From IMG/VR virus record IMGVR_UViG_3300034631_000059: a stretch of DNA of 64,000 nucleotides; one strand, written 5' to 3'. This document shows positions 11,156 through 42,430 of the stretch, one piece after another. A program made the position numbers and the translations under genes. The notes under the pieces are model-generated. The model did not search any database. It had not been told where the DNA came from and was given only the letters and a program-made list of their open reading frames with translations. The stretch is from a virus. The first letter of the stretch is position 1. Every line of letters begins with the position of its first letter.

Positions 11156-11159
11156 CCCC

Positions 11160-11604: not shown

Positions 11605-11844
11605 ATGGAAGCCACGATGCCCAAGATCCTCTCGCGGCGCCCGCGCCGCCTTCTTGCCCAGCCTACGACCGCCACGATCCGCCTCGTCCATATCCCGAAC
11701 GCCGCTGACGCGGACGGCGAGCCGCGGGTGGCCCTGGAGGTGCCGCCGAAGCCTGGCTCGGTGAACCGCCGCCCCGTGCTGCTGATGTTCGCCAGCATGG
11801 CCGCCGCCCTCGACAGCAAGCGCAGCATGGAGGGCCATCGGTGA
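11605..11844 (+). CDS. Hypothetical protein
   Basis: ORF whose stop overlaps the primase start; start uncertain (11539, 11605 or 11617). Confidence 0.55.
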   Translation: MEATMPKILSRRPRRLLAQPTTATIRLVHIPNAADADGEPRVALEVPPKPGSVNRRPVLLMFASMAAALDSKRSMEGHR

Positions 11845-14743: not shown

Positions 14744-14803
14744 GACCGTCTCAGGGGAATCTCACCGCCGTCTCACGCTGAGTGTGGGGCCATTTGTGGG
14801 GCC
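14719..14803. repeat. Recombinase arm-type repeats
   Basis: Five TGAGAC/GTCTCA hexamers (14719, 14731, 14741, 14748, 14770) and two TGTGGGGCC direct repeats (14783, 14795) just left of the att core. Confidence 0.55.
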
Positions 14804-14846
14804 CCAGTGGGAAGCGCCCCGAATACTCAGTAAAAACAAGGATGTT

Positions 14847-14864
14847 TGGCGTCCCGTACGGGAT
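14847..14864 (-). other. att core: duplicated 3' end of a tRNA-Glu
   Basis: Minus strand reads ATCCCGTACGGGACGCCA (T-stem 3' side, acceptor strand, CCA). Upstream sequence is not tRNA, so this is a fragment and not a gene. Confidence 0.75.
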
Positions 14865-14880
14865 CGCCTTAGACGTGCAA

Positions 14881-14938
14881 AATCAACACCTTGGCGCGCC
14901 AGAAATGGCTAGCTTCTTCAAGCTGAATCAAGGGCTTG
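14881..14938 (+). promoter_or_regulatory. Two IHF consensus sites in the att arm
   Basis: AATCAACACCTTG (14881-14893) and AATCAAGGGCTTG (14926-14938) both fit WATCAANNNNTTR. Confidence 0.6.
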
Positions 14939-27684: not shown

Positions 27685-28292
27685 AGGACTTCGAAGACTT
27701 CCTGCCCGATGTGCTGATCCACGCGGCGGCCGTGCCCGAGCCGACCGCCATCCTCTACCTCCGCCGGGCGGCCCAGGAGTTCTGCACCAAGACGAAGCTG
27801 TGGCGCGAGGTGGATTGCCTTCCGGCGACCGGCGGCGAGTTCGAGACCGTGTGCGTGCCGCCCTACTCCGCCCTGGTGCAGCTCGAAAGCGTGTCTCTGA
27901 ACGGCCGAGACCTCTTCCCGCTGCGGGGCGACCGCCATGCCGGGCGAGACGGCGGGGAGCCGGACTACTTCACCCAGACAGGGCCGGACCAGATGCGCCT
28001 GGTCCCCTGTGGCGGGTCGGCGCTGGTGGGCCAGGAGATGCGGATGAGCATGATCCTGAAGCCCGCCGAGGGCGCGGAGATGACCGCCGATTTCCTCTAT
28101 GACCACCACGTGGAGGCCATCGCCGCGGGCGCTCTCTCCCGGATCCTGATGCTGCCCAACCAGCCCTACACCGACTTGGCGCGCGCGGGTGTGTTCGCGG
28201 GGCAGTTCCAGGCCGAGCTGGACCGACTCATGGGCGCCAGCATCAAGGGGCAGCAGAGAGCCAATGTCCGCAGCCGTTCTCGATTTCTCTAA
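27681..28292 (+). CDS. Putative tail adaptor / tubular protein A-like
   Basis: ATGA overlap; FLPDVL...PEP...AAQEFC..TKLWR...IAAGALSRILMLPNQPYTD pattern. Confidence 0.65.
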   Translation: MKDFEDFLPDVLIHAAAVPEPTAILYLRRAAQEFCTKTKLWREVDCLPATGGEFETVCVPPYSALVQLESVSLNGRDLFPLRGDRHAGRDGGEPDYFTQTGPDQMRLVPCGGSALVGQEMRMSMILKPAEGAEMTADFLYDHHVEAIAAGALSRILMLPNQPYTDLARAGVFAGQFQAELDRLMGASIKGQQRANVRSRSRFL

Positions 28293-28878
28293 CGTCCCCT
28301 GGATCGTTGGCGCGGGCATTGAGGCTTCCGCGCTGCCGGTGCGGAAGGATCGTCGCATCGTGGACAAGGGCCCGCACATGGCGGAGCTGGTCCACAAGCG
28401 CGGCGAGGACACGCTTGACTACTTCATCGACCTCTCCCGCTGGCTGGAACCCCATGAGGTGATCGTGGTCGCGCGGGCGCGGACGCTGCCCGCCGATCTT
28501 CAGGTGCTGAGGGTGGATTTCGCGCCCCAGGGCGCGGTGGTGTGGCTCTCCCAGGGGGCCGATGGCGTCCGGCATGAGGTGCAGGCCCAGGTGCAAACCA
28601 GCCTGGGCAAGGTGAAGCTGATCCGCTTCTTCGCGATCACGCGCGGCAACGGGGTGCCGCCCCTCCCCCCGCCGATCACCATCACCGTGCCAGACCTGGA
28701 AATCGTGCTGGCGCCGACCTCTCCGGGTCTGGAGGTGTCCGCGACCACCATCGACTTCGGCACGACCGACCTATCCGGCGGCGAGGGCATCGTCACCATC
28801 AAGAACACCGGCACGGCACCCCTCATCATCACCAGCATCACCACCACCGGGCCCTTCTCGGTGGTCAGCACCTCATAG
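28264..28878 (+). CDS. Fibre/tail adaptor-like protein with C-terminal Ig-like (ASH) domain
   Basis: DTLDYFIDLSRWL adaptor-like N-terminus; IDFG...VTIKNTGTAPLIITSITTTGPFSV Ig-like motif. Confidence 0.6.
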   Translation: MSAAVLDFSNVPWIVGAGIEASALPVRKDRRIVDKGPHMAELVHKRGEDTLDYFIDLSRWLEPHEVIVVARARTLPADLQVLRVDFAPQGAVVWLSQGADGVRHEVQAQVQTSLGKVKLIRFFAITRGNGVPPLPPPITITVPDLEIVLAPTSPGLEVSATTIDFGTTDLSGGEGIVTIKNTGTAPLIITSITTTGPFSVVSTS

Positions 28879-28887
28879 GAGAGGCTC

Positions 28888-29322
28888 ATGGCCAACCGCA
28901 CCTATCCCAAGTTCCTCAGCGCCCTTCTCTCCCCCGGCGTGAACCTGCTGACCGCGACCGTGAAGGCGGCGCTGGTCTCCACCACCAGCGGCGCGGCGGG
29001 CGCCAACTTCCCTTATTCGGCCGGGAGCGAGTTCCTGTCCGACATCCCGGCCAGCGCGATCATCGCTACCAGCCCCGCCCTCACCGGCAAGGCGGTCGCG
29101 AACGGCGCGCTCACGGCAGGCAGCTTCACCCTCCCGGCCGTTCCCGCGCAGAGCGGCGGCAAGGTGGGCCAGGCCGTGGTCCTCTACGTGGACACGGGCA
29201 CGGCCGGTACGTCCCGCCTCATCAGCTTCCTCGACACCTTCACCGGCCTGCCGATCACGCCGGACGGCAGCGACCTGACCTTCAACTGGTCGGGCAGCGT
29301 CATCACCCTCGCCCAGCCCTGA
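28888..29322 (+). CDS. Virion structural protein
   Basis: AGGAGG RBS; beta-rich; ALTGKAV and GLPITPDGSDLTFNW motifs. Confidence 0.7.
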   Translation: MANRTYPKFLSALLSPGVNLLTATVKAALVSTTSGAAGANFPYSAGSEFLSDIPASAIIATSPALTGKAVANGALTAGSFTLPAVPAQSGGKVGQAVVLYVDTGTAGTSRLISFLDTFTGLPITPDGSDLTFNWSGSVITLAQP

Positions 29323-29337
29323 TCCCAGGAGACCGCC

Positions 29338-32300
29338 ATGTCCGGCAGCCTGCCCATCACCGTTCCGCCCGGCGGCAGCATCACCCTGCGGATTGCCTTC
29401 ACCCCGCAGGCGGCGGGCGCGGCTGATGGTGGGCTGGTGGTCACGACCAATGCCGGGCCGGTGCCCGTGAGCCTGCACGGCGTTGCGGCCGAGCTACCCC
29501 CTGCCCCGCGCACCTTCACCATCCCGGGCGTGACCGTGCTGCTCACACCGGGCGGCGGCGAGGTGGTGAAGGTGACGCCGGCAGGGATCGGCTGGCTCTA
29601 TGTGGACGGCGGGCGGCTGCGCGAAGAGGGCACCGGGGAGGCCTATCGCTTCAAGGGCGCAAACTGGTTCGGCGCGAGCGCGGAAGGGCTGGTGCCGGAC
29701 GGCCTGTGGGCGCGCCCCTACCGCAGCATTGGCAACGGCCAGGGGGCGAACGAAGGGCTGTTGGAGCAGTTCAAGCGGTTCGGCTTCAACGTCATCCGCC
29801 TCCTGGTCTGCCAAGACATCACCTGGCCGGGGCGGAAGCCGGGCCGCTACATCGACCCCTTCTACAACCCGGACTTCTTCTCTCCGCGCCCGGAGGCTGG
29901 CAACGAGTACGCGACTCCCCAAAGCGCCCTCATCACCGCCATCGAGTGCCTGGACCTCTTCGTCGCGCACGCGAAGGAGCTGGGGCTTCGCGTCATCCTG
30001 GACATGCACTGTGCGGCGCCGAACGTCTCCAACGACCTGGGCCTGGGCTATAAGTGGTACACCACCACCAACCCCGGAGATCAGGGCGGCACCACGGGCG
30101 CCGTGGGCGAGCCGCGCAGCGAGGCGCAGATGCTGGCGGCCTGGCGCTTCTATGCCGACCGCTACAAGGACGAGCCGACCGTCTGTGGCTTCGACCTCAT
30201 CAACGAGCCGCTGGAATGCCGCTGGGACAGCGATCCCCATTTCGGCATCAAGGGCTTCTATGACCGCTGCGTCGCGGAGATCCGCGAGGTGAACACCAAG
30301 GCTCTCATCATCTGCGAGGGCGCTTTCAAGAGTTGGAACCCGGACTTCAACTCCTATGAGGTTTCGGCCATCTACACCTCCGAGGGGCTGCATGTTGGCG
30401 CGCAAGCATCGGGAGACCTCCGAGGCGTCGCGAGCGATCCTGTTGTTGATACGGTACCCAACAAGATCGTCTATTCGCCGCACGAGTACGGCTCCTACTT
30501 CCCCGGCTACACGGACGGGGCCGGGAATATCTACCGCAACTACATGCGCCCCGACACGGCCTTCCCGGCTAACCTCCGGGAAATCTGGGGCACGTGGTTC
30601 GGCTACATTGCCGAGCAGGGCCTTGGCGGCGTGCTGATTGGCGAAGTGGGCACCTGGTTCAACACCGATGCCTACTCCTACTCCGGAACGAAGGTTCCCT
30701 ACACGGAGCAGAACCTTGCCGCGGATCGCCTCTGGCTGGCCGAGCTGGATGAGTACATGCGCGAGTTCGGCATCGGCTTCACCTTCTGGTGCTTCAACCC
30801 TGGCGGCGAGCCGGATGGCATTACCGAGCCGGAGGACATTCCAGCAAGCGGCGCCCCGGTCGCAGGGGACGGCCAGTGGCGCACCACGATCTATCCCTAC
30901 AAGCAGGAGATTCTTGACCTCCTGCTTGCGCCGGATGCGGATGCGCCGGTCTCGCGCATCTTCACCCTTCCTGAGCAGGCCATCACCGCGACGGCCGGCG
31001 TGCCCGAGCTGGCCGTCAGCCACACCTTCGCCCTGCCCGGCACGTCTGTCACCGCGACGGCCGGGGCGCCTGCACTGGCAGGCGGCATCTCCTGGCTCTC
31101 CGCCGATGGCTCGCGCCTCGTGGATGACGGCGGCAACACCATCATCCTGAAGTCGGTGGGGTGGTTCTCCCTTGAGCAGGACAACTACTTCCGGGGCACC
31201 TCGCAGCGCACCTACAAGACGCGCCCCGTCATCCTGAACGATGAAGCTTTCAACCAGGGCGTGACGGTCCCGCACGAGCAGGAAGGCATCGTCGACATGG
31301 TGAAGCGGGCGGGGTTCAACTCCATCCGCCTCCCCATCAGCCAGCACACCATTCTCAACGCCCGCGCGCGGGGCTCCTACCAGGTGGAGCCCTACGTGAA
31401 CCCGGACTTCATCCTGGGGGCGCAGCTCCCTGCGGCGGGCCAGTGGCCGCCCACCTTCCCCGACAAGAGCCAATGGGGCGCCTATACCTCCGACCCGCCC
31501 TGGTACTCGAACAACGGTCCAGCCGAGGATCAGAAGCAGCCCATCCTGCACTCCATGGACATGCTGGACCGGATCATCGCCTACGCGCGGCAGATCGGCC
31601 TTCGCATCATCCTCGACATGCATTGCGTCTCCGCGAACTCCGACAATTTCGCAGCCAACAACGGGCGCTGGTACACCACGGCCAGCCGCACGGCTGGCGG
31701 CGCCAGCGCGGGGACGCCGGGCGAGGTGCGCGACGAGACGCAGGCCATCGCCTGCTGGACCTATCTGGCCGACCGTTACAAGAACGAGCCTACTGTCTGC
31801 GCCTTCGACATCATCAATGAGCCGCACAAGGCGACCTGGGATGCCGGGCAGGCGAACCTCGCGGACAATGTGCGCGCCTACTATGAGCGGGTGGGCAATG
31901 CTATCCATGCCGTCAACCCGAACGTCTTCCTGTGGTTCGAAGGGGTCCATGGCTCGAAGTACGTGGACGGCGCCTACCAGGAGTACGTCTCGGTCATCTG
32001 GAACGAGCTGCCGGGCGCGCCCGACCTGGGCCTACAGTTCTCAGGCAACCTCACGGGCGTTGCCGCGGCCCCGGTGGTCCTGAACACGCCGAACAAGCAC
32101 GGGTTCTCCCCGCATGAATACTCGCCCAGCGAGAACGGGGCGGTTGCCGATTTCGTGGTGAACTACGCGGGCAGCAGCGGTATGTCGCAGAAGGACGTGT
32201 GGAAGGCCCGCTGGCGCAAGCTCTGGGGCTATCTGGCCGAAGCCGACACGGCGCCGATCTGGATTGGCGAGTGGGCTGCGAAGTGGAACGGCACGCGCGA

Positions 32301-32493
32301 TGCGCAGGACGAGGCCTGGTTCGAGGCGCTGACGGAATACTGCGCCGCCCACAACATCAGCCATTCCTACTGGTGCCTCAATGCTGGCGCCTGGAACGGG
32401 ATCATGCTGGGCGACGACAACAGCGGGTTCACGGGGCTCGATGAAGTCCGCGTGGCGAAGATCCAGCCCATGCTTCAGCAGACCGGAGCCTGA
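29338..32493 (+). CDS. Ig-like domain plus two tandem GH5 (endoglucanase-like) domains
   Basis: Each repeat has WF(G/S), GFNxIRL, GLRxILDMH, FDxINEP (acid/base Glu at 30205 and 31819), SPHEY, IGE (nucleophile Glu at 30643 and 32269) and W(C)xN. AGGAG RBS. Confidence 0.9.
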   Translation: MSGSLPITVPPGGSITLRIAFTPQAAGAADGGLVVTTNAGPVPVSLHGVAAELPPAPRTFTIPGVTVLLTPGGGEVVKVTPAGIGWLYVDGGRLREEGTGEAYRFKGANWFGASAEGLVPDGLWARPYRSIGNGQGANEGLLEQFKRFGFNVIRLLVCQDITWPGRKPGRYIDPFYNPDFFSPRPEAGNEYATPQSALITAIECLDLFVAHAKELGLRVILDMHCAAPNVSNDLGLGYKWYTTTNPGDQGGTTGAVGEPRSEAQMLAAWRFYADRYKDEPTVCGFDLINEPLECRWDSDPHFGIKGFYDRCVAEIREVNTKALIICEGAFKSWNPDFNSYEVSAIYTSEGLHVGAQASGDLRGVASDPVVDTVPNKIVYSPHEYGSYFPGYTDGAGNIYRNYMRPDTAFPANLREIWGTWFGYIAEQGLGGVLIGEVGTWFNTDAYSYSGTKVPYTEQNLAADRLWLAELDEYMREFGIGFTFWCFNPGGEPDGITEPEDIPASGAPVAGDGQWRTTIYPYKQEILDLLLAPDADAPVSRIFTLPEQAITATAGVPELAVSHTFALPGTSVTATAGAPALAGGISWLSADGSRLVDDGGNTIILKSVGWFSLEQDNYFRGTSQRTYKTRPVILNDEAFNQGVTVPHEQEGIVDMVKRAGFNSIRLPISQHTILNARARGSYQVEPYVNPDFILGAQLPAAGQWPPTFPDKSQWGAYTSDPPWYSNNGPAEDQKQPILHSMDMLDRIIAYARQIGLRIILDMHCVSANSDNFAANNGRWYTTASRTAGGASAGTPGEVRDETQAIACWTYLADRYKNEPTVCAFDIINEPHKATWDAGQANLADNVRAYYERVGNAIHAVNPNVFLWFEGVHGSKYVDGAYQEYVSVIWNELPGAPDLGLQFSGNLTGVAAAPVVLNTPNKHGFSPHEYSPSENGAVADFVVNYAGSSGMSQKDVWKARWRKLWGYLAEADTAPIWIGEWAAKWNGTRDAQDEAWFEALTEYCAAHNISHSYWCLNAGAWNGIMLGDDNSGFTGLDEVRVAKIQPMLQQTGA

Positions 32494-32494
32494 C

Positions 32495-35400
32495 ATGCCG
32501 ACCACGCGCAACCTCCCGGTCTCGCTTTCCGTGGAGCCGGATCGGATCATCACGGCCGATTGGACCACCAGGGACGGGACCGCCACCGCCGGCACGGACT
32601 ACACGGCGGCCAGCGGCACGCTCACCTGGCCGGTTGGGCAGCGCATCGCCACCATCCCCCTCACGGTGCTGGACGGCGCGGGCGCTGGCACCTTCTACGT
32701 GGACGTGTCCAATCCGACCGGCGGCGCGGTCGTCCAGGACGGCACGGGCGCCATAGCCATCGTGATCGAGGATGTGCCGCCCGACCCTGGAGGGGATCTG
32801 ACGCCCGAAGTCGGGGTGATGCTCGACGCGCTCTGGGGCTATGTGCAGCGCGCGACGGGGCAGGCGGCCGTTCAGGCCGGCATGCCGCCGCTGGTGACGG
32901 AAGAGGGGCTGGTGAAGAACAGCCAGCAGCCGGAGACGGCGCTGGGTGGCTACCTGCCTCAGAATGCCGCTACCAGCGAGGGTATCAGCCTGCTGCTACG
33001 TGGCGTGGCTCGCGCTTATGCGGCGACGGGCGACAGCGCCTATCTCGACTACGCAGGCTTCCTGATGGACGCGGCGTGCAGCTTCTTCTTCTTCGACAGC
33101 CGCCCGAGCAGCGACCCGTCCCAGGAATGGTTCCATACGTGGCTGGTGAATGGAGGCCCGGCATTTCCGGTGCGGGGTCCGGTGGCGGATGCGGCGGATC
33201 AGGGCGGCTATGTCGGCGTGCCCGTCTCCTTCGTGTCTGGGGTGGGGCAGCTACCGCACGCGCCCGAGCAGGTGTTCCAGGCCGCGACCGAAGGCGCGCA
33301 GTTCGTGTGGCACAACGTCTATGCCGATATCGTTGAAGGCACGGGCACCCGGATCGCCGTCAGCTACTACATCAACGCAGCCAGCGCGAAGGTCTATGGC
33401 ACTCAGAAGGGCGGCAGCTTCGGCCAGCCCATCGAGCCGGGCAGCAATGAGCCGCCGGGGCGCATCGTCCTGGCCTCGCCGCTGACGGGAACCTACCTGA
33501 TCAACTACAATGTCAGCGTGCCGGGGGACACCATCGCCTATGGCGACCCCTACGAGGCATGGCCCTTCTGGCGCCGCCTTGGTGCCGCCGAGCGCAGCCA
33601 CGCGGCCGACGCGATCCACTGGTTCGCGGACGCCTTCCGAGTGATGAAAGAGGCGGACCCCGGCAACGCAGAGTGGGCGCGAGCGCACGCTCGCACGCTG
33701 GACCTGTGGCGCATCTGCTGCGAGCAGGAGAGCGACACCACCCTCATCTTCAAGGCGGGCACGAAGGGCTTCTACAACTCCTTCCCCATCACCTACGCCT
33801 ATGCCTCCGGGCAGGATCAGGCTGGCGAGGATGGCACGGCCTGGGCCGGGCCGCCGGCCGCGCCGTACATGACCGCCGAGCGCGGCAGCGACGGCTATGT
33901 GAACTTCATCCTTCCGAAAATGGACGGCGCGCCGGGCAGCGGCCTGCCGGTTCGCTACAACATGGCCTTCGAGAACGGGACCCTCTTCCTTCGCTACAAT
34001 CTGGGGGCGACGATCAAGGCGAACATCTACGCCTCCGCCCCCACCATCGTCACCGCCACCATCCAGCGCACGGACGGCGCCAAGGGAACGGCCCTGATGG
34101 CGCTGGGCACGACGCCAGAGGAGCATACCATCCTCCTCAACGGTTTCCGCGCCTTCCAGATGGAGCCGGGCGACGCCACGGGCGACAAGACGGGGGATTG
34201 GAGCGGGAGCGGCGAGTACACCCCTCCGACCTACCTTCCTGTGCCCTTCCCCGGGCGACGCCGCGCGATGGTCGGGGACTCCATCACCTGGCTGAACACC
34301 TTTTGGAATCCCCCCACGGGCACGGATGCGCCCTGGCAGGATGGCAGCGGCGCCAACACGCCAGGCGGCGGCTGGGGCGGGGTGGGCGGCGGCGGCCAGG
34401 GCAACCCCCTGGCGCCCGGCTACTATGAGTATTTCGGCCACTCGATGTCGGGGTATCTCACCTACGAGAACCAGCTCATGAACCAAGGCCTGGTCATCGA
34501 GCCCCACCTGCAGGACCGCCAGGCGCTCGAAGCTGCCGCCAGCCAGCCCGTGGGCCGCTGGAAGAACGGCAACAACTTCGCTATCGCGGGCAGCCGGGTC
34601 ACGCAGTGGAATGAGCCCCAGAACGACACCCTGGGCAACGGGGTGCTGGAGGTGGGCCCGATGTTCAACGCCCGCCGCTACATGAATAAGTTCGACGTGG
34701 TGGACGTGCTGGGCGGCACCAATGACCTGGGCGGTGGCACCGTCTCCGCTCAGACGGTCTTCAACGCCATGCGCCCCTACATTTATGAGCTGGCGGAAGC
34801 CGGGAAGTGGGTGTTCCTGCACACCGTGCCGCCGCGCACGCGCGAGTGGTTGGGGGGCTACTACTCCCCGGCCGGCGCCGGATGGAAAGACCCCGGCACC
34901 GCCGATCCCGAGGCCGCTTATACGATCGAGAAGCAGGACCTCGTGCGGTCGCGGATCGAGGAGCTAAACAACCTCTTCCGTGAGGAGTTCGGCTACTCGC
35001 AGCCGGGCGTCGTCGGGTCGCACAAGCGCGCCAATATCTGGCTTGTGGACCACTACTTCGGGCTGCTGGGGCCGAATGGGAAGGACCCCTTCGGCCATCA
35101 GTCCAACGACAGCGATCCACTCGCGCAGGCCACCATCGGCAACTTCCGCAGCGACCTGCCGGGCAAGGTCGCGCTCTATGACGGCCTGCACGAAGGGCCG
35201 CCGGGCGCCTACGTCATGGCGCTGGAAGGGCGCCGCGTGAAGCTGGGCGCGGGGGTACCGCTGGGAGGGGCATCTCCGGCCTCGCCCCTGACCTTCGGGG
35301 CGAACCTGTTGCCGAACCCGGCATTCCAGATCAGCACGGCCCGCCCGCCGGCCGAGAACGGTCAGTCCAGCTCGCGCGGCCGGGCGCGAGGCCTGGGGGC

Positions 35401-36307
35401 TCCGCTTCGCGACGCCACGCACCAGCAGTGGACGGGCAGCGGCCCCATGCCCGCCGATATCGACCAATTCGCGAATGTCGGGCTGGGCTACGAGCATGGG
35501 CAGGTGCCCAACTACTGGCAGTTTTACCGCGCCCACAATCCCGGCCCCGGAGAGCCGGCCGGCGAGGGGTGGAGCAACTTCAATGAGTACACCTGGGGCG
35601 CCCTTGCCCAGCAGTTCCCCAATCTGAACGCCTACATGGGCAGCAGCACGTGGCAGAACGGGGCTGCGCAAACTTCCGTTGTCAGCTTGGACGGGGAGCC
35701 CGCCTTCAAGATCCACTTCAGCGTGGGGCAGACGGGCAACAAGAACGAATCCTTCGTCGTCCGCACCCTGTGCCCCGGCGGCCAGCACGGGGCCTGGGAC
35801 AGCTATGGCTACGCGGAGTTCGATTGGGCGGCATGGTTTGCCGCGGGAAACACCGGCCAGCCCCCGCAGTCCGCGGTGAACATCGTGCCCAACACGCTCT
35901 ATGCCCCCGGCGACAAGCTCATGGCGAAGGCCGAGGTTCGGATGGGTAACATGGTCGGGTGCTACACCTGGCGGATGGCCCTGAACTTCCTCTCAGTGGA
36001 CATCGACGCGGTGAACGCCAACGACATGACCACCACGGGCGCGCCGATCTGCGCCTATGCGCACTCGCAGAACTTCTGGCCGCCCTCCCTGCTGGATGTG
36101 GTGCGCTCGCCGCGCGACATGGAGCCGCTAATCTACCAGACGCCTATCGTGACGGCGCCCGCCAAGGGCCTGGGCAACCGGCAATACTTCGCGCAGCTCA
36201 ACTTCGAGTTCGCCTTTGACGCCAGCCAGGGCCCGGCGGGCGGCGACATCATCATTCGCCGCCCTGGCCTGTACAAACTGACCAGCAATCCGGAGGCGCT
36301 GCGGTGA
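32495..36307 (+). CDS. Multidomain protein: Calx-beta-like + GH8-like segment + SGNH/GDSL esterase
   Basis: Calx-beta-like WTTRDGTATAGTDYTAASGTLTW; ATSEG (32972-32980) and AADA (33608) like the GH8 catalytic motifs; SGNH blocks GDS (34274), GGTND (34712) and DGLH (35180). Confidence 0.75.
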   Translation: MPTTRNLPVSLSVEPDRIITADWTTRDGTATAGTDYTAASGTLTWPVGQRIATIPLTVLDGAGAGTFYVDVSNPTGGAVVQDGTGAIAIVIEDVPPDPGGDLTPEVGVMLDALWGYVQRATGQAAVQAGMPPLVTEEGLVKNSQQPETALGGYLPQNAATSEGISLLLRGVARAYAATGDSAYLDYAGFLMDAACSFFFFDSRPSSDPSQEWFHTWLVNGGPAFPVRGPVADAADQGGYVGVPVSFVSGVGQLPHAPEQVFQAATEGAQFVWHNVYADIVEGTGTRIAVSYYINAASAKVYGTQKGGSFGQPIEPGSNEPPGRIVLASPLTGTYLINYNVSVPGDTIAYGDPYEAWPFWRRLGAAERSHAADAIHWFADAFRVMKEADPGNAEWARAHARTLDLWRICCEQESDTTLIFKAGTKGFYNSFPITYAYASGQDQAGEDGTAWAGPPAAPYMTAERGSDGYVNFILPKMDGAPGSGLPVRYNMAFENGTLFLRYNLGATIKANIYASAPTIVTATIQRTDGAKGTALMALGTTPEEHTILLNGFRAFQMEPGDATGDKTGDWSGSGEYTPPTYLPVPFPGRRRAMVGDSITWLNTFWNPPTGTDAPWQDGSGANTPGGGWGGVGGGGQGNPLAPGYYEYFGHSMSGYLTYENQLMNQGLVIEPHLQDRQALEAAASQPVGRWKNGNNFAIAGSRVTQWNEPQNDTLGNGVLEVGPMFNARRYMNKFDVVDVLGGTNDLGGGTVSAQTVFNAMRPYIYELAEAGKWVFLHTVPPRTREWLGGYYSPAGAGWKDPGTADPEAAYTIEKQDLVRSRIEELNNLFREEFGYSQPGVVGSHKRANIWLVDHYFGLLGPNGKDPFGHQSNDSDPLAQATIGNFRSDLPGKVALYDGLHEGPPGAYVMALEGRRVKLGAGVPLGGASPASPLTFGANLLPNPAFQISTARPPAENGQSSSRGRARGLGAPLRDATHQQWTGSGPMPADIDQFANVGLGYEHGQVPNYWQFYRAHNPGPGEPAGEGWSNFNEYTWGALAQQFPNLNAYMGSSTWQNGAAQTSVVSLDGEPAFKIHFSVGQTGNKNESFVVRTLCPGGQHGAWDSYGYAEFDWAAWFAAGNTGQPPQSAVNIVPNTLYAPGDKLMAKAEVRMGNMVGCYTWRMALNFLSVDIDAVNANDMTTTGAPICAYAHSQNFWPPSLLDVVRSPRDMEPLIYQTPIVTAPAKGLGNRQYFAQLNFEFAFDASQGPAGGDIIIRRPGLYKLTSNPEALR

Positions 36308-37701
36308 ACACCTACAACACCTGGTTCCCGGGCAAGCCCTTCTACAGCTTCCCCGAAGGCGCGGTCGCGCGCACCCTCTCGAACGCGGGCCTCTCCGGCG
36401 CGACGATGGCCGTGGACAGCTTCACCATCCCGAATCAATCCGCCGGCTTCGGTGTGGTGGCGGAGCATATCTACCCGCCGTTTGCCATCACGAAGCCCCC
36501 CAAGATCGCATACACCAGCGACAAGGATCTGCGCCTCTCGATCAAGGACGCGGACGGCTGGATGTGGGTGGCGCCCATGCCCGCGCAGGGCGCTCTCGCG
36601 GAGCGCGGGTGGAGCTGGGACCTGTTCGAGCTGGCGGATGTTCAGGACAACGGCGGCGAGCCCCCGAGTGCGCCGGCACAGGGCAACGTGCAGGCCTTCC
36701 AGATTCAGGGCGCGCCGGAGATCAGCGGCGCCGTCACGGTGAAGATCGCGTACATCGCTGGGCGTTCCCCGGGCACGGTCAGCAACAGCGGAGAACTCTC
36801 CCTCTTCTCGATCACTAGCACCGACCCGCAAGCCCTCACGCTGAAGATCGGGGACGTGCGGCTTGAAGGCGGCAGCCGGCGGCCGTTGAAGTACAACGGC
36901 GCCCTGCCCTTCGGCTTCATCGTCGGCGGCCCGAACCGCTCGAACCTGTCCACGGCCCCTTACCGCGGCCCCTATATCGCGGGCTACCAGTCCGGCACGC
37001 CATGGGTGGACCTGGGCGAGACAGTCAAGCTGGGCGCCCTGCTGGACTTCATGCAGGAGAGCCAAGTGCAGTTCCGGGACCGCCACCCGCAGCGCATCCT
37101 TGGCCCCTTCATGCACTGCTATCTGCCGGTCGTGTGGGACGCCATCCAGACAGGCCCGGTGGACTCCTGGGTGTGGGACGCGCCGGACGGCAACCCGGCC
37201 TGGTCCGGCTGGCAGTATCGAGCCTTCGATGCCATCGCGGAGACCTGGGCATTGATGGCGGAGAAGAACATGGTCGGCATGGCCAAGGCCGCCACCGTGA
37301 CCAACCGCTTCGCGACATGGCTGGCCGCCTGGTTGGCCGAGCATCCCACGGCCGACCTCATCCCGTCCGATTGGGCGCCGCCGGGCTGGGCACCCGGCCA
37401 GCCGCTTGCGCCGGAGAGCTATCTGGATCCGAAGGGCACCTTCAAGGTGCCGCACGACATGGCCCTTTGCCTGAAGGCCGCGCTCTATGCGCGCAAGGCC
37501 GGTGGCGCGGCCGCAACCTATCGGCCGATCATCCGGCGCATGATCCGCGCGCTCGCGACGTGCCAAGTGCCCGCGGGCGAAAGCCCGATGCGCGGCGCGT
37601 TTTCGCTGAACCCCGAGGCCTACGAGTCCTACGGGTTCCATCAGGGCGAGATCATGGACGCCCTCGCGCTGGCACTGCAGAATCCCGATTACCTAACCTA
37701 G
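36304..37701 (+). CDS. Tail-associated protein, possible C-terminal half of an (alpha/alpha)6 glycosidase fold
   Basis: GTGA coupling; aromatic-rich helical C-terminus WSGWQYRAF...GFHQGEIMDAL. Confidence 0.65.
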   Translation: MNTYNTWFPGKPFYSFPEGAVARTLSNAGLSGATMAVDSFTIPNQSAGFGVVAEHIYPPFAITKPPKIAYTSDKDLRLSIKDADGWMWVAPMPAQGALAERGWSWDLFELADVQDNGGEPPSAPAQGNVQAFQIQGAPEISGAVTVKIAYIAGRSPGTVSNSGELSLFSITSTDPQALTLKIGDVRLEGGSRRPLKYNGALPFGFIVGGPNRSNLSTAPYRGPYIAGYQSGTPWVDLGETVKLGALLDFMQESQVQFRDRHPQRILGPFMHCYLPVVWDAIQTGPVDSWVWDAPDGNPAWSGWQYRAFDAIAETWALMAEKNMVGMAKAATVTNRFATWLAAWLAEHPTADLIPSDWAPPGWAPGQPLAPESYLDPKGTFKVPHDMALCLKAALYARKAGGAAATYRPIIRRMIRALATCQVPAGESPMRGAFSLNPEAYESYGFHQGEIMDALALALQNPDYLT

Positions 37702-37714
37702 AACCGAGGACAGG

Positions 37715-39415
37715 ATGGCGATCCGACTGACGGCATTTTCCGGAGAGACGCCCGCCGTCAACCCTCGCCTGCTGCCCGACAACTCGGCACAGATCGCCCA
37801 GAACGTGCGGCTGGAACGGGGCGACCTGGTGCCGATGCGCACGAGCAAGCTTGCCCACACCTTCAATGCCGATGCACAGACCATCTACCTGTTCCACGGC
37901 ACGTGGCTGGGCATTCCGAGCATCGCGAACATCGTGCCCGCGCCCGTGGCCGAGAACCGGCTGTACATGACCCTGGCAGAGGGGCCGCCTCAGATGCTGG
38001 TGGACGGCGCAACGCAGCTTGGTCTTGCCGTCCCCCGGCCTGGCGCGCCGCCCATCCTGACCACCAGTGGAACGCTCGATACCGACCTCTCGTTCTCGAT
38101 CATCTACGTGACTACGTTCGTGACCATTTACGACGAGGAAAGCGAGCCGTCCGATGTGTCGGCGTCCTTTGTTGTTTCGCCCAACATGACCGTCAATCTC
38201 GGGCAGATGGAAGTGCGGACGGATCGCGGCATCAACAGGCGCCGGATTTATCGCTCTCAAACCGGCACGTCCGGCAGCACCGAATTTTATTTGGTGGGCG
38301 AGCAGTCCGTTGCAGCGACGACTTTCAGCGACAATCTGGCGGCAAATCCCATTCAGGAGCTTTTGCCATCCGTAGATTATAACCCACCGCCCGATGGGCT
38401 GAAGGGCATCGTCGCCATGCCCAACGGCATTATGGCGGCGTTCGTGGGGAAGAAGCTCTATTTCAGTGAACCCTTCATTCCTCACGCATGGCCTGAGAAA
38501 TACGTTCTCACGACCGACTACGATATCGTCGGTCTGGGCGTGGTCGGGCAATCGGTTGTGGTGGCGACCACCGGCCACCCCTATCTCGCCTCCGGCATGA
38601 CCCCAGAGAGCATGACCATGGAGCGCCTGCGGGTGAACCTGCCGTGCGTCTCGGCGCGAGGCATCGTTGATCTGGGCGTGGGTGTCGCCTACCCGTCCAC
38701 GCGCGGGCTCGTTCTGGTCAGTGCGAACGGCGCGCAGATCGTCAGCCAGGGCATGATGACGCCGGACCAGTGGGCGATGCTCTCCCCGGAGCGGATGATC
38801 GCGAGCGACATCAACGGCCGCTATGCCGCCAGCTATGTGGTTCGGGACACCACTTACGGCGGGGTTATCCTCATCGACTTAACGGGCCAACAGCCTTTCG
38901 TCTTGCGCGCCAGCGACAGCTTTCAGGCCGCCTTTACGGAAATCGGGACCGGCCGCCTTTTCGTCCTCACGGACAACCGAAAGGTTTATGAATGGGACGC
39001 ATCTGGCGCGGCAGCCACTGAGTATATCTGGCGCTCGAAGGCTTTCGTGCTGCCCGAGGCGACCAATTTTGGTGTGGTCCTGGTGGAGGGCGACAACACC
39101 ATGTCACCCGAGGAGCAGGACGAAAACAGGCTCCGCGCGCCTGGGCTGAATCTTGGCATCGAGCCCATCGGCGCGCCGCCAATCTGGCTTGAACCCGCCT
39201 ATAGCAGCCTCATGAGCGGCGGTGCCCCACCCCCTCCCGGCTTCATGGCCGTGATCTATGCGGACGGCAAGGCGGTGGCGCGCGTCACCACCATGAACCG
39301 GCCGGTGCGCCTGCCCGGCGGCTTCGCGGCGCGGCAATGGGAGGTGGAGGTGCGCGGCAACCAGCGCGTGAGCCTCATCACCCTGGCGAACACCGTTTCC
39401 GAGCTGGCCGTCTGA
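37715..39415 (+). CDS. Tail nozzle / tubular protein B-like
   Basis: FSGETPAVNPRLLP, RRIYRS, LKGIVAMPNGIMAAF.GKKLYFSEPFIPHAWP, VRLPGGF.ARQWEVEV. Confidence 0.75.
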   Translation: MAIRLTAFSGETPAVNPRLLPDNSAQIAQNVRLERGDLVPMRTSKLAHTFNADAQTIYLFHGTWLGIPSIANIVPAPVAENRLYMTLAEGPPQMLVDGATQLGLAVPRPGAPPILTTSGTLDTDLSFSIIYVTTFVTIYDEESEPSDVSASFVVSPNMTVNLGQMEVRTDRGINRRRIYRSQTGTSGSTEFYLVGEQSVAATTFSDNLAANPIQELLPSVDYNPPPDGLKGIVAMPNGIMAAFVGKKLYFSEPFIPHAWPEKYVLTTDYDIVGLGVVGQSVVVATTGHPYLASGMTPESMTMERLRVNLPCVSARGIVDLGVGVAYPSTRGLVLVSANGAQIVSQGMMTPDQWAMLSPERMIASDINGRYAASYVVRDTTYGGVILIDLTGQQPFVLRASDSFQAAFTEIGTGRLFVLTDNRKVYEWDASGAAATEYIWRSKAFVLPEATNFGVVLVEGDNTMSPEEQDENRLRAPGLNLGIEPIGAPPIWLEPAYSSLMSGGAPPPPGFMAVIYADGKAVARVTTMNRPVRLPGGFAARQWEVEVRGNQRVSLITLANTVSELAV

Positions 39416-39416
39416 G

Positions 39417-39719
39417 ATGCCCAGCACCGACACCGACTACCGCCAGCTCAAGGAGAAGGTGGAGATCCTGACCGGCGAGCGCGGTGGGAAGAACGATGCC
39501 GCTATGCGCCGAAAGGACTTCGACCTCATCGTGCGCCGTCTCGATGCTACGGAGCGGGGCCTGACCGACACGGAGAAGGCGCTGGCCGCTGTGGTGGTGC
39601 CGGGCATCACTATCGGCGCCATCGCCGCTCCGCCGGACGCCGCAACCTTCAACGCTTTGGTGGACCAGGTGAAGGCTCTCCGCGAGGCGGTGGAGGAGAT
39701 CAGGCGGGCCCTGGCATGA
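39417..39719 (+). CDS. Hypothetical phage protein
   Basis: LKEKVEILTGERG motif; tightly packed in the operon. Confidence 0.7.
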   Translation: MPSTDTDYRQLKEKVEILTGERGGKNDAAMRRKDFDLIVRRLDATERGLTDTEKALAAVVVPGITIGAIAAPPDAATFNALVDQVKALREAVEEIRRALA

Positions 39720-40147
39720 CACGGAGGGTGGTCTATGAGGATCCGCCGCGCCTGCTGGCCTGGGCGGAGGGGATCAACCGCACTGAGTTCATGTCAGACG
39801 CCCACGCCATCGGCCTGGAGGATGCGGAGGGCAAGCTGCTGGCCGTGGCCGTGTACCAGTGCTTCACCCATTACGAATGCGACCTCCACATTGCTACGGT
39901 GGACAGCGGCCGAGCCATGAACCGGGAGTTTCTGGTTCATGGGTTTAGCCACCCCTTCATCCGGTTGGGGTTGGTGCGCGTGACCGGCCTGATTCCGTCC
40001 AATCACGCGAAGTCTAACCGGGTTGCCCGGCACATCGGCTTTGTTCTTGAGGGGCGGAAGCGGGAAGCTTTTCCTGGTTGCGATATTCTGGTTTGGGGTA
40101 TGCTGCGGCGAGAGTGCCGCTTCATCCCGGAGCGGTTCAGAACCTAG
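39716..40147 (+). CDS. GNAT-fold protein of podovirus tail regions
   Basis: PFIRLGLVRVTGLI...RHIGFVLEGRKREA...ILVWGMLRRECRF. Confidence 0.75.
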   Translation: MTRRVVYEDPPRLLAWAEGINRTEFMSDAHAIGLEDAEGKLLAVAVYQCFTHYECDLHIATVDSGRAMNREFLVHGFSHPFIRLGLVRVTGLIPSNHAKSNRVARHIGFVLEGRKREAFPGCDILVWGMLRRECRFIPERFRT

Positions 40148-40156
40148 GAAGCCTTC

Positions 40157-40993
40157 ATGGGCGGCGGCAGCAAGAACACGGTCAGTACCGCCCCCGATCC
40201 GGCGGTGGGCATCGCCGCCATGAAAGAGGCCGAGCTTGGCGAGAAGTGGCTCGTGGAGAGCCAGAAGCAGTACGAGATCGCGAACACGCGTCAGGAGAAG
40301 CTCGACGCCATCTCGAACGAGGTGTCGGCCCAGCAGCTCTCGGCCTCGAGGGAGGCGCAGCGTTGGGCGGAGCAGGACCGGACCCGCTCCGTGGGCGTGT
40401 TCCAGCCGCTTCAGGACCAGTTCATTCAGAAGGCCGCCGATTGGGACAGCCCGGCGCGCCAGGACGGGGTGGCGGCCGAGGCCGCCGCGGATGTCCGGCG
40501 CAATGCCGGTATCGCGGACAGCACCCAGGCCCGCCAGATGGCCGCGATGGGGGTCAACCCCACCTCCGGCCGGTATGCTGGTGTGGACCGCGCCGCGAAG
40601 CTGCAGACGGCTCTTGGTGTGGCGAGTGCCGAGAACAACGCCCGCTCCACCGTTCGCAACCAGGCGATGGGGCTCATGGGCGACGCGATCAACCTGGGCT
40701 CCGGCCTGGGCGTGAACCCCGCGACCTCCCTGAGCCTGGGGAGCCAGATCGGCAGCGCGGCGCAGGGCACGCAGCTCACCGCCAACCAGGCGAACACCGC
40801 CAATATCGGCATCCTCAAGAGCGGCTACGATCAGGCGATGCAGGGCTACAACGCCCAGGCTAATATCCTCTCCACCCAGCGCGGCCAGAACATCCAGCTC
40901 GCGGGGCAGCAGGCGCAGCAGCAGGCCAGCAACCAGTCCTCCACGATGGGCGCCATCGGCTCCATCGCGGGCGTGGCGGTGATGGCGTTCTGA
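40157..40993 (+). CDS. Putative DNA ejection (internal virion) protein
   Basis: MGGGSK start, MGVNPTSGRY, Gln/Ala/Gly-rich, hydrophobic C-terminal GAIGSIAGVAVMAF. Confidence 0.65.
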   Translation: MGGGSKNTVSTAPDPAVGIAAMKEAELGEKWLVESQKQYEIANTRQEKLDAISNEVSAQQLSASREAQRWAEQDRTRSVGVFQPLQDQFIQKAADWDSPARQDGVAAEAAADVRRNAGIADSTQARQMAAMGVNPTSGRYAGVDRAAKLQTALGVASAENNARSTVRNQAMGLMGDAINLGSGLGVNPATSLSLGSQIGSAAQGTQLTANQANTANIGILKSGYDQAMQGYNAQANILSTQRGQNIQLAGQQAQQQASNQSSTMGAIGSIAGVAVMAF

Positions 40994-41676
40994 TGCGACC
41001 GAACCCGCCGCCCTTCGACCTCGCCAAGGTGGACGCCGCCACGGCCGTTCTCCTGGCGGAAGGCGTGCGCCTCTTCCAGACGCACTTCTATGCCCACGAC
41101 AAGGAGGAGCATGTGCGCCTCCTTCTGCGCTGGATGGCGCCGCCAATGGGGGCGGTGGTGGTGGACATGGGCTGCGGGGTGGGAGAGGTGGCCCGCCTCA
41201 TGCGCGCAGCGCGGCCGGATCTTGAGTTCGTGCTGGTGGACCTATCCCGCCGGAAGTTGGACCATTGCCCCACCGGCGAGGGCTTCTATCGCGTCCTGGC
41301 CGATGCGCACGCGACCGGCCTGCCCGGCGAGCGCGCGGACGTGGTGATGTTCCACTCCGCACTCATCAATATGGACGCCCAGCACGCGCTGGCGGAAGCG
41401 ACGCGCCTGCTGAAGCCGGGCGGGATTTGCTTCGTCAATGAGCTGATCCGCAAGCAGGGCGACAACCGGCGCTTCGAGGAAGTTCTCGGCGCTTGGGCGC
41501 CGACCGAATGGGAGCTGCGCAATTGGGCCGCGCTCGCGGGGCTGTTCTGCGATGGCGGACCCATGGTGCCGCCGGGCCTGATGGAGGAGTTCCGCGCGCG
41601 GCTGGAAGCGATCCAGGAGGCAGCTCTTTTGGATGACGTGCAGCCCCAGGTGTGGAGGTTCACGCGCCGTGTTTGA
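40993..41676 (+). CDS. Class I SAM-dependent methyltransferase
   Basis: VVDMGCGVG motif I, LVDLS, ADAHA, RLLKPGG. Confidence 0.85.
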   Translation: MRPNPPPFDLAKVDAATAVLLAEGVRLFQTHFYAHDKEEHVRLLLRWMAPPMGAVVVDMGCGVGEVARLMRAARPDLEFVLVDLSRRKLDHCPTGEGFYRVLADAHATGLPGERADVVMFHSALINMDAQHALAEATRLLKPGGICFVNELIRKQGDNRRFEEVLGAWAPTEWELRNWAALAGLFCDGGPMVPPGLMEEFRARLEAIQEAALLDDVQPQVWRFTRRV

Positions 41677-42430
41677 CGCAGACGCCGCCCTGGCCGCCGC
41701 CCGCGCCATGATGGAGGGGCATGAGCGCATCGCCCTGGAATGCTCCGGCGGGCGCGACAGCCTCGCCCTCGTCCACCTCCTCCGGCCGGAGCTGGATCGC
41801 ATTACGGTGTTCTGGCTGAACACGGGCGCCGCCATACCCCAGACGGTGTAGGCGATGGAGCGGGTGCGCCAGCTCGCGCCTCACTTCGTGGAGGTGCAGG
41901 GCAACCAGCCCCAGGTGATCGCGGAGTTCGGCATCCCGACCGACATCCTGCCGCGGAGCGCCACCCCCATCGGCATGTTCGCCGGGCAGTCCACGTCCGG
42001 CCTTCTGATGCAAGATTCCTACTCGTGCTGCGCGCGGGTGGTGATGGTTCCGCTGCACAAGGCCGTCATGGAGTTCGGTGCTTCGCTGGTGATCCGGGGC
42101 CAGAAGCTATCCGACCGGCACAAAAGCCCCGTGCGCTCCGGCGATGTCATCGACGGGGTTCGCTTCCTCTTTCCCCTGGAAGGGTGGGAAGCCGAGGACG
42201 TGATGACCTTCCTTCGGTCCCGCCGCGTCCCGATCCCGCGCTTCTACGACACCATGGGCGGCGCGCCGGACTGCATGACATGCACCGGCTGGTGGAGCGA
42301 GAACCACGGCCAGTACCTCAAGCGGCATCACCCCGAGGCCCACGCGACGGTGCAGGCGGGGCTTCGAGCCATCATGGCCGAGACGATGCCGCATATCGAG
42401 AATTTCAACCGCGAGCTGGAGCAGGAGTAG
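41669..42430 (+). pseudogene. PAPS-reductase-like (adenine nucleotide alpha hydrolase) gene interrupted by an in-frame TAG
   Basis: ECSGGRDS and LNTG motifs in 41669-41851, TAG at 41849-41851, same frame resumes GCG ATG (41855) with RGQKLSD, FPLEGW and PDCMTCTGWW. Confidence 0.7.

Follow-up and report, generated by a model that had tools for sequence, protein, structure and literature searches.

Several phages with enzymes related to those described here are already known. In Erwinia phage S6 (Schitoviridae), the GH5 protein gp095 adjoins gp094, which combines a Calx-beta domain with a GH48-like (alpha/alpha)6 barrel, within the receptor-binding region; gp095 degrades carboxymethyl-cellulose (CMC), and cellulose is the first receptor of the phage (PMC9544554). 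Erwinia phage PEp14 (Pavtokvirus) carries a GH5 gene, "cel", with an N-terminal Gp77 domain, located after a phrog_437 structural gene. Ralstonia phage GP4 provides the type members of the gp77 fibre-tail adaptor domain and the gp80 fibre-monomer family. The SGNH tail fibres of the N4-like E. coli phage G7C (gp63.1) and Pectobacterium phage Possum act on acetylated surface polysaccharide (see also PMC9569702). The closest isolated relative of the module studied here is gp18-gp21 of Pseudomonas phage Skulduggery, which shows the same synteny. Its host is P. fluorescens SBW25, and the wss operon of this species makes acetylated cellulose.

Organization of the locus

The window is a 64,000-nucleotide stretch of viral DNA, classed in IMG/VR as a provirus, with a tyrosine integrase at its right end. 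Five tail genes, all on the + strand and with a GC3 of 0.86-0.94, occupy positions 28264-37701, where the initial annotation had placed them. They are flanked by the major capsid protein (MCP), portal and internal virion protein genes, in synteny with PEp14 and Skulduggery; the MCP is ~71% identical to that of PEp14 and ~69% to those of GP4-like phages. The module is hosted by an integrated podovirus of the Bcep22/GP4/PEp14/Skulduggery-like type, in agreement with the temperate podovirus initially proposed. The features are as follows.

28264-28878, +: tail adaptor protein, 204 aa; Gp77-type fibre-tail adaptor domain, Pro-rich linker, N-terminal half of an ASH/HYDIN-type Ig-like domain
28888-29322, +: fibre or "wing-arm" monomer homologue, 144 aa (phrog_644, E 1.7e-25; PDB 9d93)
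29338-32493, +: GH5 protein, 1051 aa (two stretches matching Pfam GH5 PF00150, E 4.7e-64)
29338-29502, +: split Ig-like domain, C-terminal half, located N-terminally in the GH5 protein (MSGSLPITVPPGGSITLRIAF...; Pfam ASH profile positions 59-92 of 98)
29584-30831, +: GH5 domain 1, aa 83-498 (Pfam and HMM matches; columns invariant in 23 domains)
31084-32409, +: GH5 domain 2, aa 583-1024 (match to E1 endocellulase, PDB 1ece/1vrx)
32495-36307, +: first tail-protein part, 1270 aa; Calx-beta, barrel N-terminal part, beta region, SGNH esterase, C-terminal beta-sandwich
32858-33730, +: predicted (alpha/alpha)6 barrel, N-terminal part, carrying a beta insertion; conserved TSEG motif with E162 (numbering from the 32495 start)
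34250-35260, +: SGNH hydrolase domain; S596 (GDS), G699, N743 (GGTND), D896/H899 (DGLH), same numbering
35288-36289, +: C-terminal beta-sandwich domain (confident beta-rich AF2 model; in relatives invariably found after the SGNH domain)
36304-37701, +: second tail-protein part, 465 aa; beta-sandwich region followed by barrel C-terminal helices (aa ~195-465)

The listed reading frame of the 1270-aa protein begins at 32381; we prefer 32495, one base past the GH5 stop, because the Shine-Dalgarno (SD) sequence GGAG and ATG found there fit the homologues.

Two divergent GH5 domains

The 1051-aa protein indeed contains the two complete GH5 domains that had been claimed, each with both catalytic glutamates. 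In domain 1, the acid/base E290 (INEP) and nucleophile E436 (IGEVG) are accompanied by R154, H224, N289, H382, Y384 and W484; in domain 2, E828 (INEP) and E978 (IGEWA) are accompanied by R664, H762, N827, H926, Y928 and W1012. None of these eight canonical R/H/N-E/H-Y/E/W residues varies, either between the two domains or across the 23 aligned relatives. Identity between the modules is 31% (E 5e-65), and they represent different GH5 lineages, domain 2 grouping with the second domain of the related protein P0004 with a support of 100/99. Judged by sequence, the domains are divergent yet catalytically complete. Domain 2 matches Acidothermus E1 (1ece/1vrx; whole-sequence E 1.6e-32, domain E 1.2e-23) with the NEP, HxY and GE motifs aligned. 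The nearest solved structures to the GH5 domains are E1, EngXCA and EGPh, all beta-1,4-endoglucanases, which upholds the endoglucanase likeness noted initially. Tandem GH5 domains were found in none of the isolated phages in the collection.

In relatives, GH5 is fused either to the Gp77 adaptor domain (Skulduggery gp18 and P0012) or to a P0003-like tail-protein module (P0013 and P0064), from which we infer that the GH5 enzyme is carried on the virion. GH5 and SGNH domains are fused or adjacent in nine loci, the window included.

The Skulduggery gp18 hydrolase is 36% identical to that of the window, but unites the Gp77 adaptor, complete Ig domains and one GH5 domain in a single polypeptide, whereas the window has a separate adaptor gene, an inserted fibre-monomer gene and two GH5 domains. 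PEp14 "cel" occupies the same position as the window enzyme; it has one GH5 domain, however, and the gene behind it encodes an EPS depolymerase of the beta-helix type; an SGNH cassette was not detected. S6 likewise differs in its single GH5 domain and in being an N4-like, non-temperate phage, for which there is no report of an SGNH cassette and no description of a divided Ig domain or barrel.

An Ig-like domain divided between adaptor and enzyme

The first two genes had been annotated as Ig-like adaptors. This description suits the first, which matches Pfam PF23148 (Gp77, "Podophage GP4 fiber-tail adaptor") above cut-off (E 4.2e-14) and PDB 8jou_D (E 4e-6) and ends in half an Ig-like domain; GP4 gp77, in contrast, is the adaptor domain alone (93 aa), without an enzyme cassette. 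The second is no adaptor but a fibre-monomer homologue, matching PDB 9d93, "tail wing arm gp31" (E 1.6e-12), and its gene, with a dedicated SD (GGAGAGG), separates the two Ig halves. The order adaptor, fibre gene recurs in loci L026 and L030.

The adaptor C-terminus covers only positions 1-52 of the 100 in the Ig-like profile PF22544 and stops after TTGPFSVVSTS. Its residues 16-198 (from the ATG at 28264) align to residues 16-218 of Skulduggery gp18, and residues 1-50 of the GH5 protein align to 220-271 of gp18, taking up where the adaptor alignment stops. Both halves are contiguous in four fused relatives (Skulduggery gp18, P0010, P0013 and P0015). Six further loci (L007, L008, L021-L024), N4-like phages among them, break the domain at exactly the same point, and five of the six show ATGA coupling without a fibre gene between the halves.

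When the adaptor C-terminus and the GH5 N-terminus were submitted to the complex test, the pair scored 0.60 (best control 0.00). The mark was attained by 51 of 78 solved complexes and by 2 of 108 mismatched pairs; among the 78 complexes only 5 scored 0.60 or less, as did all 4 mismatches, out of 180, that passed. Runs agreed in at least 98% of contacts with a partner pLDDT of at least 75. Each half attained a pLDDT of 75-79 with its true partner only, against 42-44 and 43 with unrelated proteins. The test hints weakly at pairing in trans.

A barrel split over two genes with a nested esterase

The 1270-aa protein matches phrog_2871 "tail protein" (E 2.4e-50), is 41% identical to Skulduggery gp20 over 93% and contains a Calx-beta domain (E 1.3e-6). 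Skulduggery gp20 has the same succession of Calx-beta, barrel N-terminal part, SGNH and beta-sandwich, with gp21 as the coupled C-terminal part of the barrel. In the window this coupled partner, which the initial annotation had also recognized, is the 465-aa protein; its gene overlaps the upstream stop (GTGA), has its own SD (GGAGG), and the product matches phrog_2871 positions 620-1039 (E 3.3e-58). In 11 relatives, this part continues the barrel N-terminal part within one polypeptide.

In the VIA comparison, the barrel N-terminal part resembles the opening portion of GH76 and GH8 barrels with Z scores of 12-14 (4q2b: Z 12.7, rmsd 2.1, 130 aligned). As a stand-in for the two chains of the window, we modelled the fused homologue P0121 (39-42% identical), which is predicted to form a single barrel (pTM 0.84) with Z scores of 28.6 to 3ren and 24.2 to 4q2b. 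Overall, its matches to GH126, GH8, GH105 and GH76 reach Z 22-29 over ~310 residues, covering both halves; those to GH8 include the BcsZ-type 4q2b and Komagataeibacter 6vc5, and the top Foldseek matches are GH48. The modelling thus predicts one GH8/GH48-type barrel, split over two translationally coupled genes with the SGNH domain and a beta-sandwich between its halves. The "GH8-like" label originally given holds at this level of fold; it fails as a sequence-level assignment, the barrel having no sequence match to GH8 or GH48. The TSEG glutamate is conserved in 26 of 29 and 22 of 23 sequences, and E162 is a candidate catalytic acid, the sole one identified in the barrel, with no base assigned. 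The barrel may also be structural or have another substrate, because Gluconacetobacter prophages carry it without GH5.

The SGNH motif reported earlier is well borne out: no variation occurs across 31 relatives in the blocks GDS596, G699, GxN743D and D896xxH899. Homologues carry PF13472/PF00657, and the window copy falls under the Pfam cut-off (E 0.002-0.004). The AF2 model of the protein (m27dc87266a7e, pLDDT 77.7) matches SGNH esterases in the VIA comparison with Z 15.8-16.2 and rmsd 2.7-2.8, namely GDSL acylhydrolases, sialate O-acetylesterase and CE3/CE16 acetyl-xylan esterases. The modelled fold is nearest to carbohydrate and sialate O-acetyl-esterases. While the G7C and Possum fibres are virion-borne trimers with the esterase as main domain, the SGNH domain of the window, itself presumably on the virion, is nested in a split barrel and paired with glucanases. 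The following beta-sandwich is possibly a carbohydrate-binding module; Foldseek matches, tied to no range of the model, include CBM and tailspike C-domains.

Proposed function and alternative explanations

We consider it probable that the block is a host-recognition and enzyme module of the tail that binds and cuts a beta-glucan on the surface, which is most likely cellulose, perhaps in O-acetylated form. The Gp77-type adaptor would anchor the module on the tail, and the GH5 enzyme would dock on it through one Ig-like domain, half from each chain, folding in trans; the two barrel halves would reassemble likewise. Split domains may be how the enzymes plug onto the tail. The SGNH domain would strip O-acyl groups, enabling the glucanases to cut, and the polysaccharide would serve as first receptor, as cellulose does for S6, while the module cuts through it en route to the outer membrane. 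A tail-module glucanase and esterase set is the part of the earlier interpretation that stands. Its comparison to a cellulosome does not hold in the strict sense. What is shared is the idea of multiple glycanases, together with an esterase, assembled on a scaffold through modular plugs between proteins; cohesin, dockerin and scaffoldin were not detected in the window, where the proposed plug is instead the split Ig-like domain. The claimed novelty of the architecture was overstated given PEp14 "cel", S6 gp094/gp095 and Skulduggery gp18-gp21, and phage tail-borne GH5 enzymes are a known kind. Apparently new are the tandem GH5 domains, the Ig-like domain split between adaptor and enzyme, and the GH8/GH48-like barrel split over two genes with an esterase nested in it.

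A somewhat doubtful alternative holds that the Ig halves do not pair, either because strands of the fibre monomer complete each by beta-augmentation or because the break is a degenerate domain boundary, and that the barrel is a non-catalytic tail scaffold. Augmented beta-sheets do join the fibre dimers of GP4-type and A1002 phages (PMC13730344), and the fibre gene of the window sits between the halves. In L026 and L030, moreover, the adaptor ends in half an Ig domain, and no partner half was found where the next large gene begins; the barrel bears neither a GH8 nor a GH48 sequence signature. Pairing is favored, however, by the contiguous halves of the fused relatives, by the break point shared with loci that mostly lack an intervening fibre gene, and by the partner-dependent pLDDT, and catalysis by the conserved TSEG glutamate.

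Cellulose itself is a likely substrate rather than an established one: GH5 is a polyspecific family, and the window protein (P0001) is only ~26% identical to the tested S6-type enzymes. The same tail-borne module might thus target another exopolysaccharide, a capsule or O-antigen (mixed-linkage or beta-1,3 glucan, mannan, acetylated heteropolysaccharide), in which case the SGNH domain would resemble in its action the fibres with which N4-like phages deacetylate O-antigen. Consistent with this, 4qnl (G7C gp63.1) is among the Foldseek matches, SGNH tail fibres deacetylating other polysaccharides are described (PMC9569702), and the two GH5 lineages may differ in specificity. We nevertheless regard such a target as unlikely, since every one of the closest solved structures is a beta-1,4-endoglucanase, the sole tested phage homologue cleaves CMC, and the Skulduggery host species makes acetylated cellulose. 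Far less probable still is that these are auxiliary metabolic genes whose secreted products, no parts of the virion, let the host feed on algal or plant cellulose. The sample of origin is an algae metagenome, and prophage CAZymes are currently taken as carbon-cycling auxiliary genes (PMC13507307), but the genes of the block are translationally coupled and lie inside the late structural operon, with the adaptor on one side and the internal virion proteins on the other, their relatives fuse GH5 to tail adaptor or tail-protein domains, and the isolated phages PEp14 and Skulduggery have the same module.

Organization of the Module

The gene block that the initial annotation had recognized at 28264-37701 is confirmed by our analysis. 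It is flanked by a phrog_437 structural gene and an internal virion protein gene, and encodes the following proteins:

28264-28878 (+), adaptor, 204 aa: Gp77 domain, Pro-rich linker and first half of an Ig-like domain
28888-29322 (+), homologue of a small fibre or 'wing-arm' subunit (the fibre monomer), 144 aa: phrog_644; PDB 9d93, E 1.6e-12
29338-32493 (+), GH5 protein, 1051 aa: remaining half of the Ig-like domain, followed by two GH5 domains
32495-36307 (+), tail protein P0002, 1270 aa: Calx-beta domain, helical region with a beta insertion, beta region, SGNH domain and beta-sandwich
36304-37701 (+), second part of the tail protein, P0003, 465 aa: GTGA overlap with the upstream gene and its own GGAGG

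The adaptor matches the Gp77 family PF23148 with 53.3 bits against a cut-off of 27 bits (E 4.2e-14 in Pfam) and is similar to a solved protein of phage GP4 (8jou_D, E 4.2e-6). For the 1270-aa protein, the start at 32495 was picked by its Shine-Dalgarno sequence (SD) and ATG and by the N-termini of its homologues; the beta region ahead of its SGNH domain is poorly modelled. None of the module proteins matches the beta-helix or pectate-lyase families of Pfam, and the folds seen in the models are of the barrel, SGNH and sandwich types instead, in agreement with the earlier remark that this is not a beta-helix tailspike architecture. The designation cellulosome-like is not supported in its strict sense, as the cohesin and dockerin families of Pfam are absent from all module proteins. 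The module can be described as a putative phage tail-borne cellulase and esterase, a kind already known, with a substrate that we infer from relatives; the earlier interpretation was broadly right in kind and overstated the novelty. What is noteworthy are the tandem GH5 domains and the two domains that are split across genes.

Tandem GH5 Domains

The 1051-aa protein matches PF00150 (GH5, clan GH-A of retaining glycosidases) in two stretches (E 4.7e-64, cut-off 23.5 bits), and each domain passes this family on its own with 100-107 bits. In domain 1, the acid/base is E290 (NEP) and the nucleophile E436, accompanied by R154, H224, N289, H382, Y384 and W484; their counterparts in domain 2 are E828 (NEP) and E978, with R664, H762, N827, H926, Y928 and W1012. 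The prediction of two complete GH5 domains with intact catalytic glutamates thus holds. The eight canonical residues are invariant in 23 domains, the two of the window and 21 related ones, and domain 2 aligns to Acidothermus E1 (1ece) across the NEP, HxY and GE motifs. The nearest solved relatives of the domains are E1, EngXCA and EGPh, which we take to be members of subfamily GH5_1.

Identity between the two domains is 31%. Of the isolated phages, 35 records match and all lack a second GH5 region; tandem arrangements occur in the metagenomic relatives P0004-P0009. In the tree, domain 2 of the window clusters with domain 2 of P0004 and domain 1 of P0007, domain 1 of the window is placed elsewhere, and the other tandem proteins join other lineages. 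Tandems were therefore built repeatedly from diverged paralogues, a hint at different specificities. Simple in-situ tandem duplication was rejected, as the tree puts the domains in separate lineages and tandems arose several times. Two relatives are natural fusions: P0013 (1173 aa) joins a P0003-like tail module to Ig domains and GH5, and P0064 (1650 aa) carries the same elements plus SGNH and a beta-sandwich. These fusions show free shuffling of the cassettes.

An Ig-Like Domain Split Between Two Genes

An Ig-like profile is covered at positions 1-52 by the last ~50 residues of the adaptor and at positions 59-92 by the N-terminal ~40 residues of the GH5 protein. When aligned to gp18 of the isolated relative Skulduggery, the adaptor covers residues 16-218 and the N-terminus of the GH5 protein residues 220-271. 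This consecutive alignment indicates that the adaptor and the GH5 protein represent two sides of one domain, which is continuous in gp18 and in the relatives P0010, P0013 and P0015. An identical break point is present in six other loci (L007, L008 and L021-L024), of which L008 is N4-like. There, the upstream reading frame ends in ...G(D/P)F/Y-x-(I/V)-x-P*, M-x-I-T-I-P-P-x-G-S or a similar sequence forms the start of the enzyme, and the junction is a CCATGA overlap in L008 and L021-L024, and a 13-nt gap in L007. Insertion of a complete gene between the Ig halves sets the window apart from these loci.

Between 28189 and 29500 of the window, one frame holds the genes for the adaptor, the fibre monomer and the GH5 protein, and all that separates them is a TAG (+9 nt) and a TGA (+15 nt). 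Stop read-through joining the three was considered and rejected as the main reading: all three genes possess an SD and an ATG of their own, which makes read-through unneeded, and the junctions of the relatives are in different frames. Separate initiation is the simple reading, next to which low-level read-through fusion products may still occur.

Prediction of the two Ig halves as a complex gave a score of 0.60, with 0.00 for the best control, which counts as 'weak support'. Of the solved complexes, 51 of 78 attain the mark of this test, as do 2 of 108 mismatched pairs; a score no higher than 0.60 was seen for only 5 of these 78 and for every one of the 4 mismatches that passed (of 180). At least 98% of contacts are shared between runs, and the partner pLDDT is at least 75. 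We consider it probable that the halves act as a plug and socket that fold in trans. The main alternative is that each half is completed by strands of the fibre monomer, as in GP4/A1002-type fibres.

A Split (Alpha/Alpha)6 Barrel

A second domain appears to be divided between the two tail proteins. In 11 relatives, a single chain contains the counterpart of residues 1 to ~556 of the 1270-aa protein and, directly after it, that of the 465-aa protein. One such fused homologue, P0121, is 39-42% identical to the window proteins, and its model reaches a pLDDT of 82.5 and a pTM of 0.84. Taken together, its N-terminal helices (residues 35-311) and C-terminal helices (714-961) correspond to entire (alpha/alpha)6 glycosidase barrels over ~310 residues, among them 3ren (Z 28.6 in structure comparison by VIA). 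As the two halves of P0121 form one barrel together, that of the window is therefore split between two polypeptides; the (alpha/alpha)6 assignment itself applies to P0121 only, and the N-terminal part of the window barrel by itself gives Z 12-14. The same split is seen in Skulduggery, L008, L023 and L024; in L007, the first barrel part is present and the contig stops before any second gene. The SGNH and beta-sandwich cassette is inserted in the excursion between the barrel halves.

The GH8-like assignment of the initial annotation stands at the level of fold. Against GH8 enzymes, P0121 gives Z 24.2 with 4q2b (P. putida endoglucanase), 23.8 with 1cem and 21.9 with 6vc5 (Komagataeibacter); VIA also matches PssZ, GH105 and GH76, and the top ranks in Foldseek are GH48 cellulases (E 4e-6). 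Membership of GH8 or GH48 (clan GH-M) is not established at the level of sequence, since neither PF01270 (GH8) nor PF02011 (GH48) matches P0121, the N-terminal part of P0002 or the C-terminal part of P0003 up to E 10. The Glu of a TSEG motif, which we presume to resemble the GH8 acid motif, is conserved and lies roughly at the GH8 acid position by VIA ranges rather than by residue-level superposition. Candidate Asp residues for the base are D372 of P0002 (counted from 32495; D410 in ORF numbering) and D279 or D295 of P0003. That the barrel is non-catalytic is a rival reading of the fold.

Two further observations concern barrel homologues. Residues 454-638 of the P0121 model (~1-150 of P0003) form a beta-sandwich that superposes on the family-11 CBM of C. 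thermocellum Lic26A-Cel5E (Z 12.4, rmsd 2.9, 144 of 170 residues). Gluconacetobacter sp. Hr-1-5, whose genus is known to produce cellulose, harbors two prophage copies (L009 and L010; 8981-12949) of an unsplit 1322-aa barrel protein, and PF00150 has no match in its genome. A scan of 401 Acetobacteraceae genomes returned GH5 matches that are all ordinary and single-domain.

The SGNH Domain

The proposed SGNH esterase motifs were recovered as four blocks of the 1270-aa protein: GDS (S596, the Ser nucleophile), G699, GxND (N743) and DxxH (D896/H899). All 31 full-length homologues retain GDS, ND and DxxH without exception, and the Gly block is nearly invariant. The window copy remains under the Pfam gathering thresholds for PF13472 and PF00657 (19 and 17.7 bits vs 32.9 and 23.6), and many homologues bear precomputed matches to these families. 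The AlphaFold2 model superposes on the alpha/beta/alpha SGNH fold with VIA Z 15.8-16.2 and rmsd 2.7-2.8, aligning 180-185 residues to targets of ~205 residues. Its neighbours, at Z 15-16 and rmsd 2.5-2.9 overall, are GDSL acylhydrolases, sialate O-acetylesterase, polyvinyl-alcohol (acetyl) esterase and CE3/CE16 acetyl-xylan esterases.

Function and Substrate

Gene position, translational coupling and natural fusions to tail domains lead us to infer that the enzymes are located on the virion. The competing view is that of secreted enzymes of the auxiliary metabolic type (compare PMC13507307). The distinction calls for caution in annotation: where prophage GH5 and SGNH genes encode parts of the virion, they should not be counted among the carbon-cycling 'auxiliary metabolic genes'. 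As for the substrate, the nearest solved enzymes and analogy with gp095, the GH5 cellulase of Erwinia phage S6, point to a beta-1,4-glucan as the likely target, with another glycan as the rival; gp095 degrades carboxymethyl-cellulose, and cellulose is the first receptor of S6 (PMC9544554). Deacetylation by the SGNH domain is an idea that builds on its structural neighbours, on the recurrent pairing of GH5 and SGNH, which are fused or adjacent in nine loci (window included), and on Skulduggery. This phage carries both domains and infects P. fluorescens SBW25, and the wssFGHI genes of P. fluorescens acetylate cellulose (PMC10302187, PMC5543642).

We put forward a broader proposal tentatively, as one that may well fail. 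The unrelated Bcep22/GP4-like and N4-like phages would share the split-Ig plug and socket, which separates a lineage-specific tail anchor from an exchangeable GH5 cassette with or without SGNH. The GH8/GH48-like barrel would be split likewise, with the esterase nested in it, and together these parts would form a non-covalently assembled depolymerase with four active sites, specialized on O-acetylated cellulose. Cellulose of this kind would, in that case, be in wide use as a phage receptor. To our knowledge, S6 is the one studied case of cellulose as a phage receptor. Together with its ~30 metagenomic relatives, the module is suggestive of a larger family of tail-located systems in environmental Proteobacteria that combine glucanase and esterase. 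The split-domain junctions provide a testable rule for the exchange of enzyme cassettes and for tail attachment, of use in phage host-range engineering and in annotation of receptor-binding proteins. Skulduggery and SBW25, whose wss mutants are well studied, constitute an immediate experimental system.

Provirus Context

The IMG/VR provirus record of which the window is part measures 81.7 kb and carries a serine recombinase at the left end and a tyrosine integrase at the right. From ~17 kb of the window onward, late genes of the Bcep22/GP4/PEp14/Skulduggery podovirus type are present: terminase, portal, major capsid protein (MCP), internal virion proteins, an N-acyltransferase and a 4609-aa polyvalent protein. 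The MCP is ~70% identical to those of PEp14, Itty13 and GP4-like Ralstonia phages. Exactly the position of the module is occupied by 'cel' and an EPS depolymerase in PEp14, and by gp18-gp21 in Skulduggery. Megablast of window positions 28000-40000 found no match among phage genomes; a scan of IMG/VR with a single protein returned zero relatives, and a profile scan 15 loci. The sequencing runs for the record stem from an algae metagenome, and portal homologues are ~60% identical equally in Alpha-, Beta- and Gammaproteobacteria. As expected, the provirus record yielded no BcsB.

Window positions 1-14900, together with 1-678 of G000, resemble a different element. Besides the serine recombinase at the left end of the record, the left ~15 kb features:

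572-2035, second terminase-like gene
2032-2868, DUF2213 gene
3617-4522, E217 gp41-like baseplate hub gene
11841-14408, primase/helicase gene

Neither a tRNA nor a long repeat was found to mark a junction of this left element; in the window, ARAGORN found no tRNA, and a search for att sites found no repeats of at least 14 bp. The 4609-aa polyvalent virion protein (43743-57572) contains an SLT transglycosylase, an SF2 helicase, LPD3 and LPD39; GGDEF, a possible link to cellulose induction, is absent from it. The adjacent reading frames 40993-41676 and 41855-42430 match positions 5-81 and 218-363 of phrog_424 (PAPS-reductase), and this pair may represent another split or a broken gene.
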